The notes under the pieces: generated by a model
Databases searched by the model: none
Told to the model about the DNA's origin: nothing
Seen by the model: the letters and a program-made list of their open reading frames with translations, nothing else
Part shown: positions 8,266 through 22,685 of the stretch, in pieces
Layout: each line of letters begins with the position of its first letter
Numbering within the stretch: the first letter of the stretch is position 1
IMG/VR virus record: IMGVR_UViG_3300017528_000451
Source: a virus
DNA length: 25,893 nucleotides
Reading direction: 5' to 3' (one strand)
Program-made: the position numbers and the translations under genes

Positions 8266-8273
8266 CTTATACC
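8266..8273 (-). promoter_or_regulatory. GGTATAAG motif copy 1 of 4, 44 nt upstream of the receiver gene ATG
   Basis: Exact 8-mer (plus strand cttatacc) in intergenic DNA. See the finding on the recurring motif. Confidence 0.35.
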
Positions 8274-8295
8274 CCAACCTTTGGGTATATTGCGT

Positions 8296-8724
8296 CTAAT
8301 TAGGTTGATGTAGCTTATTGCCACTACCCATGTTGACTAGGTCTTTCGGAGCTATTCCGGTGGCTACCAAATCATTCATTTCACAAATGATTGCGAAATA
8401 TTCGATGTGAATATTCATAAAAGTCTCTAATTCGTGAGGTGTAAAATGCAAGCAATCTTCTTGGTCCAGCTCCTGGGTTGAGTGGCAGAACGGATCGATG
8501 CAAAAATGTGCCTGCCCGCTACCTCGACAAATGGCACAGGTCGAAGCGTAGTGTGCTCCGGAGGCTCTCCAATCTATGCTTCTCTTGATAGCCTCCGACT
8601 TAAGATTTTTTAGACGGATCGCCAATGCATACATCTCATCTTTCTTTATTCGATGAGCTAGCGCGTCTAAAATAGCGTATCTTTCCTTCAATTCCTCTGG
8701 TAGTTCTAATGGAAATGGAATCAT
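8296..8724 (-). CDS. hypothetical Cys/His-rich protein
   Basis: 142 aa. Contains the cluster CAICRGSGQAHFCIDPFCH...C.H, a possible zinc-binding site. Confidence 0.4.
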   Translation of the reverse strand: MIPFPLELPEELKERYAILDALAHRIKKDEMYALAIRLKNLKSEAIKRSIDWRASGAHYASTCAICRGSGQAHFCIDPFCHSTQELDQEDCLHFTPHELETFMNIHIEYFAIICEMNDLVATGIAPKDLVNMGSGNKLHQPN

Positions 8725-8739
8725 ATGTCCTTTATCGTA

Positions 8740-8955
8740 TTATTCGATTATAGGAATTCTGAGAGTTTTGCGCACCAATAGGTCTAGCCATTCGGGTGGC
8801 AAAGAGCGCTCTGCCGTATTCCATTTTAGAGCATAGGTCGTACACCTCTCGAAGTTCAATATCATATCCGATTGCTGGTAGTAACCTCTCCCGGTAAATT
8901 CACCTGTTCGGTCAATACGGAGCACTAATCGTCCAGAGTAGTTGTGAATTTCCAT
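8740..8955 (-). CDS. hypothetical small protein
   Basis: 71-aa ORF. A GGTATAAG motif ends 6 nt upstream of its ATG. Confidence 0.3.
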   Translation of the reverse strand: MEIHNYSGRLVLRIDRTGEFTGRGYYQQSDMILNFERCTTYALKWNTAERSLPPEWLDLLVRKTLRIPIIE

Positions 8956-8961
8956 CTATTT

Positions 8962-8969
8962 CTTATACC
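8962..8969 (-). promoter_or_regulatory. GGTATAAG motif copy 2 of 4, 6 nt upstream of the 8955 ATG and immediately after a terminator
   Basis: Exact 8-mer in intergenic DNA. Confidence 0.3.
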
Positions 8970-8974
8970 ATTTA

Positions 8975-9006
8975 AATGAGGCAAAGAAAGAAGGGACGTT
9001 CCCTTC
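8975..9006 (-). terminator. intrinsic terminator downstream of the AAA ATPase gene
   Basis: Hairpin gaaggga-cgt-tcccttc at 8990..9006 is followed on the minus strand by UUUCUUUGCCUCAUU. It lies 13 nt after the stop at 9019. Confidence 0.5.
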
Positions 9007-9018
9007 CTCTACTTTCAT

Positions 9019-21055: not shown

Positions 21056-21352
21056 ATGTCAAATCCAAACACTCGCGAGAAAATGACTCAACCATTCCAG
21101 GTTGTTGATCAAGACGGAGTTGTGGACACTACAACGGTAGCCACATTTTCCACCAACAACGCAAATGTAGCTGTCCCAGCTGCGGTCGCCGGAGACCTTC
21201 GCTCAGTTGATATACTGGGTGTAGGTGTTGGCGGAGCATCCATCACAATTACCGCCAGAAGCCACAGTGCTTCCGTTGGAGTTAGTGTGGTAGCTGCCCC
21301 TGATCTAACCGCTGTTACGCTCGGCACGATCCTCGGACCGTTCCCTAAGTGA
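21056..21352 (+). CDS. small Thr/Val/Ala/Gly-rich beta-strand protein, possibly an Ig-like (Big_2-type) domain
   Basis: VATFSTNNANVAVPAAVAGDLRSVDILGVGVGGASITITA...VGVSVVA fits the alternating pattern of bacterial Ig-like domains. It lies on the strand opposite its neighbours and has its own promoter. Confidence 0.35.
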   Translation: MSNPNTREKMTQPFQVVDQDGVVDTTTVATFSTNNANVAVPAAVAGDLRSVDILGVGVGGASITITARSHSASVGVSVVAAPDLTAVTLGTILGPFPK

Positions 21353-21358
21353 GCGTAA

Positions 21359-21604
21359 TTATCTCTCGCTCACACGTCGAGAGATAAAGTCAAAATCATA
21401 GCCCGCTGAACAAGCCGGGCAATGTGCGACTGGAAGGGTCGGACTCACACGAGATCCGGCCTTTTCTATTTCTTGAATTAGAATGTGGCGAACAAATCCT
21501 ATGGTTGTGTCGTTGACTCGAACACGAAAATCCCTCTCATGATATACCGAATGGAGGGCATGGAACGAAGCTGGTTGCTTGTCATGATCTGCTTTGTCTT
21601 TCAA
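21359..21604 (-). CDS. hypothetical small protein (TTG start)
   Basis: 81 aa. AGGAGG lies 4 nt before the TTG. The C-terminal codons fall within a hairpin region. Confidence 0.3.
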   Translation of the reverse strand: MKDKADHDKQPASFHALHSVYHERDFRVRVNDTTIGFVRHILIQEIEKAGSRVSPTLPVAHCPACSAGYDFDFISRRVSER

Positions 21605-21768
21605 GCATCCTCCTGCTTTGTCTACTTAACCCTAATCTTCCAAGCGATCGGTTAACTCTCCATACCTTGAGATCTCGAATAACTTCCCCAGAGAACAGAT
21701 ATATAGCGATTGATGAGAATAGTAGACCAAAGACACGCATAAAACCTCCATGGTCTTATCACATATCT

Positions 21769-22059
21769 TTATTGCTCTTCAGCTTTAGCGCCTACGCATT
21801 TCTCATCACAGTGCTCGGTAGTTTCTGTGTGACATTCTTCCAGCTGACCCTTGGTATCGTATGAACAACTCATACTGCTAATGTCTCGGCAATTGTATTT
21901 AACCCAACTTCCTCCATTATCTGTGCATTTCTCAATCGTATGAATATAAGCAGCAGCCCCCATTATAAATACGGTTACTACTAACGCTATAGCTATTGAT
22001 ATGGCTAGAAGTTTAACCCATTCCAGAAAAGTGAATCCAAGTGGATTATGGTGTCGCAT
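21769..22059 (-). CDS. small membrane protein with a Cys-rich C-terminal domain
   Basis: One hydrophobic helix (LLAISIAIALVVTVFIMGAAAYI) followed by 7 Cys in 60 aa. Confidence 0.4.
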   Translation of the reverse strand: MRHHNPLGFTFLEWVKLLAISIAIALVVTVFIMGAAAYIHTIEKCTDNGGSWVKYNCRDISSMSCSYDTKGQLEECHTETTEHCDEKCVGAKAEEQ

Positions 22060-22066
22060 GTTTCTC

Positions 22067-22258
22067 CTATAGTTCTCGACGCACTCTAGATCCCATGACA
22101 GACACCGCTAGAGTAAGTAGCGATATCACAATGAATGGTATCAAAACTCCAATCATCACTATGACTACAAGATAAAAAATCACGACTAACGACCATAAAA
22201 CAACTATGGTGATTTTGCGATTCCTCTCCCTTAGCCCGATCCTCTCCTTCGCTGTCAT
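22067..22258 (-). CDS. small membrane protein (63 aa, two hydrophobic segments), holin-like topology
   Basis: A charged N-terminus, then IVVLWSLVVIFYLVVIVMIGVLIPFIVISLLTLAVSV. 4-bp overlap with the upstream gene. Confidence 0.4.
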   Translation of the reverse strand: MTAKERIGLRERNRKITIVVLWSLVVIFYLVVIVMIGVLIPFIVISLLTLAVSVMGSRVRREL

Positions 22259-22644
22259 GACTGCTGAGCTTTAGCTCTGCGCTCAAATTCAATTGCCATC
22301 TTCCAGATCTCTTGAGTAAGCTCTGAGCCTTTCTCCTCTATCCTGCTAGCTACACTGACTGGTGGTTGGAATGAATCTCTCAAACGGTCAGAGACTGTTT
22401 GAATACTCTCGTCAGTATTAACGAAGATCTTGAATTCCCAGAATACGGTATTGCTATATTCCGGTGCTCCGATGATTAAAACCATTGAGCGCTGAGGGCC
22501 TGGAACAATTCTCTGAAGTTCAAGGCCAAGTCTTTCCCTGCTTCCCCTTGGTAGAAACTTGGCATGAATGATAACTGTTCTGCCTTCATAAAGGACTTTA
22601 CTAAGCCCAGGACGGACGAATGCCTCAACTTCTAAGGTTTCCAT
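22255..22644 (-). CDS. hypothetical protein
   Basis: 129 aa. GGAGG SD, with a GGTATAAG motif 33 nt upstream of the ATG. Confidence 0.4.
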   Translation of the reverse strand: METLEVEAFVRPGLSKVLYEGRTVIIHAKFLPRGSRERLGLELQRIVPGPQRSMVLIIGAPEYSNTVFWEFKIFVNTDESIQTVSDRLRDSFQPPVSVASRIEEKGSELTQEIWKMAIEFERRAKAQQS

Positions 22645-22677
22645 AATCAGCTACCTCCAATGCTTTATGTTCCTAAG

Positions 22678-22685
22678 CTTATACC
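22678..22685 (-). promoter_or_regulatory. GGTATAAG motif copy 4 of 4, 33 nt upstream of the 22644 ATG
   Basis: Exact 8-mer in the 46-bp intergenic spacer. Confidence 0.35.

Follow-up and report, generated by a model that had tools for sequence, protein, structure and literature searches.

Introduction

The late promoters of phage T4, TATAAATA, consist of a single 8-bp element at -13 to -6, are read by gp55 together with gp33 and the gp45 clamp, and drive structural genes. Primary sigma factors of the sigma-70 family require a T at the last position of the -10 hexamer, and some phages use extended -10 promoters (TGnTATAAT) for middle and late genes. Promoters of the multisubunit polymerases of jumbo phages have been described for AR9 (early, AAATATATATTAT-N6-G; late, AACA-N6-T-A/G) and phiKZ (late, TATG), whose transcripts carry leaders of at least 26 nt (PMC5312081), and no leaderless transcripts were found for phiKZ (PMC8244752). 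Here we analyze a recurring 8-mer, GGTATAAG, in a stretch of viral DNA of 25,893 nt (IMG/VR record IMGVR_UViG_3300017528_000451; the whole stretch is referred to as the window) and its counterparts in related phage loci. We consider it likely that GGTATAAG is the core of a class-specific, single-element phage promoter that serves an early or middle arm, places the transcription start 5–6 nt further on, and depends on a phage-specified reader.

A first-pass annotation, made from the letters of the window, had compared the 8-mer with the T4 late promoters. The comparison holds for the architecture. Both have a single 8-bp element near -10, no -35 element, many copies each standing before its own gene, and a TATAA core (here in the T-variant), and in both the specificity would be specified by the phage. 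It fails for sequence, gene class, and membership. Unlike TATAAATA, the motif has an upstream GG, an invariant final G, and a TATAA core shifted by two positions; it stands upstream of non-structural genes and is absent from structural modules, and no gp55-like protein was found in the DNA sampled. With the AR9 and phiKZ promoters it shares a short or single upstream element, the lack of a -35 element, a fixed T-purine start (here predicted) ~6 nt downstream, and very little tolerated deviation; its use would likewise be genome-wide and independent of the host sigma factor, as in a jumbo phage. It differs from them in sequence, in the many ATG codons lying at the predicted start, and in that no beta/beta'-like gene was found in the DNA sampled.

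The motif in the window

All four copies of GGTATAAG listed in the first-pass annotation were recovered at the same coordinates, on the minus strand (Table 1). The 8-mer is as rare by chance as had been claimed: dinucleotide-preserving shuffles of the window gave a mean of 0.67 matches, and none of 100 shuffles reached four. Each copy lay outside the minus-strand open reading frames (ORFs) in the orientation of the genes, and the distances to the next ATG were 44, 6, 36, and 33 nt for the copies at 8266, 8962, 11191, and 22678, respectively, again as annotated. Two copies had been placed after intrinsic terminators, and hairpins with T-rich tails were indeed present upstream of the 8962 and 11191 copies. 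A third terminator-like hairpin (15575–15600) was detected upstream of a variant copy at 15555.

The wider set of one-mismatch variants, taken as a whole, was not enriched (18 seen vs. 18.4 expected), but a specific subset was. Sequences of the form GGGATAAG supplied three more intergenic minus-strand copies, at 15555, 20938, and 25731, and GGKATAAG occurred eight times in the window compared to 1.7 expected. A weight matrix built from the relatives described below added four copies of GAGATAAG and one of GTGATAAG, all of them intergenic and on the gene strand. At a score of at least 10, the first matrix pass yielded 12 sites in the window, every one of them on the gene strand. The iterated matrix yielded three further gene-strand matches at this threshold, all within coding sequence (12834–12841, 9625–9632, and 4600–4607), which were kept out of the 12-site count. 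One of them, GATATAAG at 12834–12841, lies within gyrB, where it encodes part of R-Y-K-G-L-G-E-M, and was rejected as a coding coincidence. Two near-variants named in the annotation were also re-examined: ATAAGCTTA before 18639 does belong to a site, the GAGATAAG copy at 18699, and GGATATAGG before 25087 was misplaced, the actual site being the GAGATAAG copy at 25108.

Intergenic enrichment was recovered in an unbiased test of all 6-mers. GATAAG was the top gene-strand 6-mer, with 8 of its 18 copies falling in the intergenic 9.6% of the DNA (p = 9e-5); it outranked TTCTTT, which derives from terminator tails. The only plus-strand GGGATAAG (20173–20180) had a matrix score of 6.2 and lies within a small palindromic hairpin, GGGATAAGGATCCC (20173–20186), in a convergent gap between a plus-strand ORF of 98 amino acids (aa) (19766–20062) and a minus-strand gene ending at 20261. 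This copy is probably due to chance.

Conservation and strand bias in related phages

Syntenic relatives, designated below by L numbers, were drawn from Logan, ENA, NCBI, and IMG/VR assemblies. The main comparison set comprised six non-redundant syntenic loci (131 kb, GC content 45–57%). In this set, the gene strand carried 35 copies of GGKATAAG and the opposite strand one. Thirty-one of the 35 gene-strand copies were located outside same-strand ORFs, that is, in 13% of the DNA, and the other four fell in over-extended ORF starts. Copies were present at orthologous positions upstream of the AAA ATPase gene, the CheY-like gene, and the genes following the major-vault-protein-like (MVP-like) and VWA genes; their flanks had diverged, and the relatives that keep these copies have a protein identity of 50–67%.

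The same bias was observed at a greater distance. L013, a 206-kb NCBI contig with a GC content of 36% belonging to a more distant member of the clade, carried 34 gene-strand copies within 21 kb, compared to three, all of them weak, on the opposite strand. IMGVR_UViG_3300025536_000012, for which five loci were stitched to 73.8 kb, carried 25 arm-strand copies vs. one opposite, all 25 of them between 20 and 74 kb. Phages that have no more than single genes in common with the window showed no enrichment: the huge phage LR756500 shares the MVP-like gene, and L014 a distant AAA homologue. The motif was absent from L010 and L014. The motif is thus strand-specific, intergenic, conserved at orthologous positions, and often located directly after a terminator, which supports a functional signal of promoter type. 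The promoter proposed in the annotation is borne out in its behavior by strand, position, conservation, and terminator adjacency.

An extension of ~40 kb in the upstream direction on one IMG/VR contig revealed nothing but further small genes and additional copies of the motif.

Structure of the element and predicted transcription start

Alignment of the sites gave the consensus r-m-G-[G/A/T]-[G/T/C]-A-T-A-A-G-r-a-n-t-T-G-R-A-G, of which T-T-G-R-A-G is the weaker part; ATAAG and the first G were essentially invariant. Its informative positions, 8 strong and ~6 weak, do not amount to the ~23 bp of contiguous conservation (-17 to +6) of a T7-like promoter, which was rejected. As the annotation had noted, no -35 hexamer accompanies the motif: the best TTGACA match at 16–18 bp spacing averaged 2.56 of 6 positions, compared to 2.45 at random positions (88 sites). 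No upstream column exceeded 0.3 bit in the window group, and matches to the sigma-70 consensus were not enriched either in the window (22 vs. 31.7 expected) or in L013 (73 vs. 77.8). Terminator-like sites were enriched in L013 (24 vs. 11.3). Other consensus types were tried and discarded. For sigma-54 (GG-N10-GC, start ~12 nt downstream), the GG-to-TTG spacing is one base too long, ATAAG lies outside the consensus, and ATG replaces the G of TTG at the sites of leaderless type; Bacteroidetes-type and sigma-28/sigma-B-type consensus sequences were rejected on spacing or sequence.

The tails of the terminators were highly uniform, reading TTTCTTTTGC[T/C] or, in other members, TTCTTAGCT (window 8980–8995, 11225–11235, and 15565–15580; many sites in L002–L083). 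The next motif copy follows after 8–39 nt, and tail and motif together make up terminator-promoter modules. TTAGCT/TTTGCT was considered as an upstream promoter element and rejected, as its distance to the motif varies (-39 to -8) and it is the tail of the preceding terminator.

Positions relative to the motif were numbered with its first G as 0. Position +12 was T in 49 of 60 sites and +13 was a purine in 48 of 60, and a pyrimidine at -1 followed by a purine at +1 is the usual pattern of transcription starts. If transcription starts at +13, the 8-mer spans -13 to -6. In L013, an ATG followed 4–7 nt past the motif in 21 of 31 copies (most commonly 5 nt; background 7.9%), and these genes had no Shine-Dalgarno (SD) sequence. 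The same layout was found at ATG 8955 and ATG 20932 of the window and in relatives. We infer that transcription would start at +13/+14 and that mRNAs would be leaderless where the ATG sits there. A 71-aa gene provides a comparison among orthologues. In the window (8740–8955) and in L002, it is preceded by a terminator and the motif, with the ATG at +14 and no SD, whereas its orthologues in L005 (12119–12334), L009 (12007–12225), and L001 (12519–12824) have an SD and no motif. This exchange of SD for motif supports the leaderless reading.

In a second group of sites, GGAGG begins at +13/+14 and the ATG follows at +20 to +29. In a third group, the leader is 30–60 nt long. The leader of the CheY-like gene contains a hairpin 0–3 nt from the predicted 5' end in six genomes (the window, L002, L005, L008, L009, and L015). 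The stems differ (UGCCC/GGGCA, ACGCUC/GAGCGU, and AACUCCC/GGGGGUU), and each hairpin is followed by a T-run and then the SD. Folding energies, calculated as single folds, were individually unexceptional. The hairpin could act as a 5' stabilizer or attenuator.

Taken together, the proposed mechanism would be as follows. The 8-mer, at about -13 to -6, would serve on its own as a -10-like element, unaccompanied by a -35 box, and transcription would start 5–6 nt past its last G, at a purine after T. Transcription units would end in terminators composed of a hairpin and a T-run, with terminator and promoter often back to back. An ATG at the start point would give an mRNA without a leader; otherwise, the SD would lie at the extreme 5' end or after a leader of 30–60 nt. 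The signal would drive the one-directional early or middle arm, and not the structural genes, of an uncultured clade of ~200-kb myophages. More tentatively, and with less than even confidence, we suggest that GnnATAAG may define the regulon of one specificity device in a widespread clade of soil jumbo myophages, either a sigma-like factor reading G in place of the T read by all known primary sigma factors or a cryptic, possibly virion-delivered polymerase, controlling an early arm of at least 55 kb with largely leaderless mRNAs.

Phage clade and genes served

Just past the window-type arm, relatives carry a module on the opposite strand encoding a 1241-aa protein with sheath-like termini, the C-terminus of which matches the annotated tail sheath of Bacillus phage G. 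Its homologues, all of near-constant length, numbered more than 120, on contigs topping out at 185–220 kb, and 63 IMG/VR loci were centered on them. Genomes of the sheath clade are ~190–220 kb long with a GC content of 36–69%, and at least one relative is of soil origin. The syntenic relatives and the adjoining sheath module indicate that the window is a fragment of an uncultured clade of ~200-kb myophages.

The genes downstream of the motif are non-structural: small ORFs and genes for GyrB, the AAA ATPase, the CheY-like receiver, and MazG-like and MoxR/VWA proteins. On the coding strand of the sheath module, no intergenic copies were found in L011 and L015, in which the neighboring opposite-strand genes carry the motif; it was also absent from this strand in L030 and most of L016–L078. 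Across the 63 sheath-centered loci, the sheath strand was mostly at or below expectation, and several genomes showed enrichment on the opposing strand, which holds the beginning of the convergent non-structural arm. The service of non-structural genes and the lack of the motif in structural modules correspond to an early or middle class, the opposite of T4 late promoters. The motif is therefore a class-specific mark of the early or middle arm, which is at least 55 kb long in one genome.

Recognition of the motif and alternative explanations

The hexamer ends in G at every site, in the position where primary sigma factors need T. This invariant G, together with the missing -35 box, points to a reader specified by the phage, which could be an RNA polymerase of its own or a sigma-like protein acting with a multisubunit core, and makes the host primary sigma factor less likely. 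Terminators made of a hairpin and a T-run would suit any such reader. A host sigma-70 polymerase in unmodified form could still be thought to read TATAAG/GATAAG as a weak -10 element aided by the upstream G. The A at -11 and TAA at -10 to -8 agree with TATAAT, the G occupies the extended -10 G position (a T stands directly before two of the four exact copies, which then read TGGTATAAG), and early genes of phages without a virion polymerase depend on the host enzyme. Like extended -10 promoters, the motif is independent of a -35 element, places a G two positions before the hexamer, and contains an A-T-A-A core. Unlike them, it replaces the near-universal last T by G in every copy, mostly lacks the T of TG (T precedes GG in only 10 of 60 sites of the six syntenic loci), and has a discriminator of only 5–6 nt. 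It is also conserved much more tightly than host promoters, the sigma-70-type matches were not enriched, and a canonical promoter occurs elsewhere in a relative: TTGACA-N17-TAATGT in L011 (15502–15563, minus strand), where it ends 7 nt short of the ATG of an HNH_3 homing-endonuclease gene located within the structural module. The latter suggests that host-type promoters look ordinary in these phages, and reading by the host enzyme is very unlikely. An initiator-type promoter, in which a single-subunit or non-canonical phage polymerase recognizes GnnATAAG(+TTGRAG) as one contiguous sequence and initiates within the 8-mer or at its end, is unlikely; the genes classed here as leaderless would then have leaders of 6–9 nt without an SD. 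The conserved block is contiguous over ~17–19 nt and asymmetric, there is no -35 box, and many phage RNA polymerases escape Pfam. T7-type, yeast mitochondrial (ATATAAGTA), and baculovirus late promoters, (A/G/T)TAAG, work in this manner, and the motif appears to resemble TATAAG(TA) and TAAG initiators; the last two promoter types share the ATAAG/TATAAG string and dedicated polymerases. Those two systems, however, are eukaryotic, viral or organellar, and start inside the motif rather than at the predicted point 5–6 nt downstream, and there is no evidence of relatedness. The ATG spacing of 5–6 nt and the T(-1)/purine(+1) at +12/+13 better fit a start at the ATG, the exchange of promoter for SD in the 71-aa gene fits truly leaderless mRNAs, and positions beyond the 8-mer are much less conserved than those of the 23-bp promoters of T7 type. 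Searches of ~1.6 Mb of clade loci for T7-like and DxDGD-type polymerase motifs gave no match.

An RNA-level signal would likewise be strand-specific and intergenic, and a fixed ATG distance could reflect processing, by an endoribonuclease trimming polycistronic RNA and possibly making leaderless mRNAs; a translation signal might be envisaged as well. Against this, many copies directly follow strong hairpin and T-run terminators, where little read-through RNA is expected, and one copy stands upstream of the first gene of a divergent unit (L015 20057). The ATG distance ranges from 5 to ~60 nt, which does not fit a ribosome-binding element, and neither anti-SD complementarity nor a conserved RNA structure was found around the motif. 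We regard this explanation as highly improbable. Chance recurrence of an A/T-rich 8-mer would agree with the unremarkable count of one-mismatch variants overall; it is refuted by the strand biases of 35:1 and 25:1, the intergenic restriction, and the conservation across relatives, and its probability is practically negligible.

The gp55-like sigma factor or phage RNA polymerase envisaged in the annotation turned up neither in the window nor among ~1.6 Mb of related loci, which cover less than 40% of any genome. The search comprised profile scans, PDB sequence searches with four proteins without assignment, DxDGD and T7 catalytic motifs, and phmmer with approximate RpoD, RpoB, RpoC, T7 polymerase, and gp55 sequences as queries. 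Window ORFs and flanking ORFs of the relatives contained no sigma or RNA polymerase domain by Pfam, PHROG, and NCBIfam, and phmmer with these queries and the motif searches revealed no RpoB/RpoC similarity, DxDGD motif, or T7-like polymerase in the sampled loci. The sole match, a sigma-70-family ORF in the distant relative L073, was rejected, as L073 shows no motif enrichment.

Several points weigh against the promoter interpretation we prefer. The sample, which reached ~75 kb of any one ~200-kb genome, yielded no gene for a sigma factor or an RNA polymerase, and at less than 40% coverage this absence is weak evidence. The assignment to an early or middle class is drawn from gene content, and the putative start point and leaderless mRNAs are deduced from sequence. 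A start 5 nt past the element would be close by the standards of sigma-70-type enzymes. Conservation of TTGRAG is inflated by overlap with SD-like GGAG at some short-leader sites. Finally, some window genes with a sizeable upstream gap (e.g., 7376–7598 and 18284–18363) have no copy, so the motif is not the sole signal.

Other features of the window

The motif sites of the window and associated features are listed in Table 1. The window, a complete JGI contig of 25.9 kb, carries all its sizeable genes on the minus strand. They encode GyrB, a 711-aa AAA ATPase with a Cys-rich N-terminus, an 887-aa MVP-like protein, a CheY-like receiver, a MazG/PRA-PH protein, a MoxR-type AAA_5 ATPase, a VWA protein, and a peptidoglycan-binding-domain protein, along with many small ORFs without assignment.

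Table 1. Motif sites, terminators, and associated features in the window and, for the tail sheath, in related loci. Scores are weight-matrix scores; starts and leaders are predicted.
Feature	Coordinates	Strand	Remarks
Motif GGGATAAG	25731..25738	-	Score 16.8; SD aaggagg, then ATG 25714, 16 nt downstream
Motif GAGATAAG	25108..25115	-	Score 12.8–17.3; then gcaTTGGAGG; ATG 25087
Motif GGTATAAG	22678..22685	-	Exact copy; SD ggagg, then ATG 22644
Motif GTGATAAG	21755..21762	-	Score 15.5–18.3; then accatGGAGG; ATG 21740 (52-aa ORF); SD would begin at predicted 5' end
Motif GGGATAAG	20938..20945	-	A of ATG 20932 at +13, T at -1, no SD (leaderless type); L002 orthologue GAGATAAGcaattaATG
Motif GAGATAAG	18699..18706	-	Score 15–19; ATG 18639
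Terminator-like hairpin, tail TTGCTATTTT	15575..15600	-	3' of MVP-like gene
Motif GGGATAAG	15555..15562	-	Then gaggTTGAAGG; ATG 15516; 12 nt past terminator; kept in L002, L005, L079
Terminator-like hairpin + T-run	11231..11254	-	Upstream of 11191 copy
Motif GGTATAAG	11191..11198	-	Then aatTTGAAG; best score, 24; predicted start G 11185
ATG of 711-aa AAA ATPase gene	11154	-	Downstream of 11191 copy; orthologous copies in L002, L005, L008, L009, L001
Terminator gaagggaacgtcccttc, tail tttctttgcc	8980..9006 (hairpin 8990–9006)	-	3' of AAA ATPase gene
Motif GGTATAAG	8962..8969	-	A of ATG 8955 at +14, no SD (leaderless type); 71-aa gene
Motif GGTATAAG	8266..8273	-	Predicted start G 8260; ATG 8221 of CheY-like receiver gene; copy also upstream of this gene in L002, L005, L008, L009, L015, L079
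CheY-like gene leader	8231..8260	-	Hairpin (tgccc...gggca) <=3 nt from predicted 5' end, then T-run, SD
Motif GAGATAAG	4953..4960	-	Then aacTTGAAT; upstream of 227-aa gene, GTG 4938 start uncertain; L002 orthologue 15904
Motif GAGATAAG	1128..1135	-	Adjoins VWA gene stop; ATG 1112; L002 orthologue GGGATAAG at 19670
1241-aa tail sheath	L011 15564–19289; L015 10001–13732		Also L016–L078

The MVP-like protein (15620–18283, minus strand) combines MVP shoulder and repeat domains with a weak match to ParB-HTH. It is kept across the syntenic relatives and is 38–39% identical to ORFs of the uncultured phages LR756500 (462 kb) and LR756501 (735 kb). Over its C-terminal two thirds, the AAA ATPase (9019–11154, minus strand) resembles proteins from N4-like Pseudomonas and Erwinia phages and from phage KPP25 (~40% identity), and its Cys/His-rich N-terminal third is restricted to the clade of the window. 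Two adjacent genes of 198 and 200 aa (22691–23287 and 23284–23886, minus strand) may have arisen by tandem duplication, as their C-terminal sequences are similar (…GKFVP.K…); neither has a family match. A short ORF for a hydrophobic peptide (12483–12638, minus strand) lies between gyrB and the next gene and has a counterpart in L002. The listed 421-aa ORF (11278–12543) probably has its true start later, at ATG 12482.

The 223-bp intergenic gap at 7376–7598 (minus strand) has ~80% DNA identity to L002 13365–13584 and L005 13501–13720, compared to only 58–67% for the neighboring proteins. Its consensus fold contains several hairpins, with a few compensatory pairs and a terminator at the end. It had no Rfam or tRNA match and contained no GnnATAAG copy, and a counterpart was absent from L008 and L009. 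We consider it a candidate new non-coding RNA.

Significance

Megablast of the window against 50,697 phage records gave no match, and no member of the clade was among them; tblastn with GyrB, the AAA_5 protein, and the sheath gave only distant or contaminant matches. Scans of metagenome-contig and genome-contig collections with the AAA alignment, an exact look-up of the window AAA protein, a search for the 200-aa window protein in IMG/VR, and an exact 30-mer of the 206-kb NCBI contig in the genome-contig collection were all without a match, and a literature search with the 8-mers returned only primer noise. As far as the searched phage collections and literature show, neither the consensus nor the transcription of this clade has been described previously.

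The motif provides a sequence handle on transcription in a large clade with no cultured member and almost no annotated genes. It can be used to mark transcription units, to correct start codons, including putative leaderless starts over-extended by gene callers, and to separate the early or middle arm from the structural genes. A tight signal of non-sigma-70 type on one gene class implies a phage factor or polymerase missed by current profiles and may guide the search for the reader. The replacement of the SD by a promoter plus ATG among the 71-aa orthologues would be a clean comparative example of the origin of a leaderless gene, as judged from the sequence layout.

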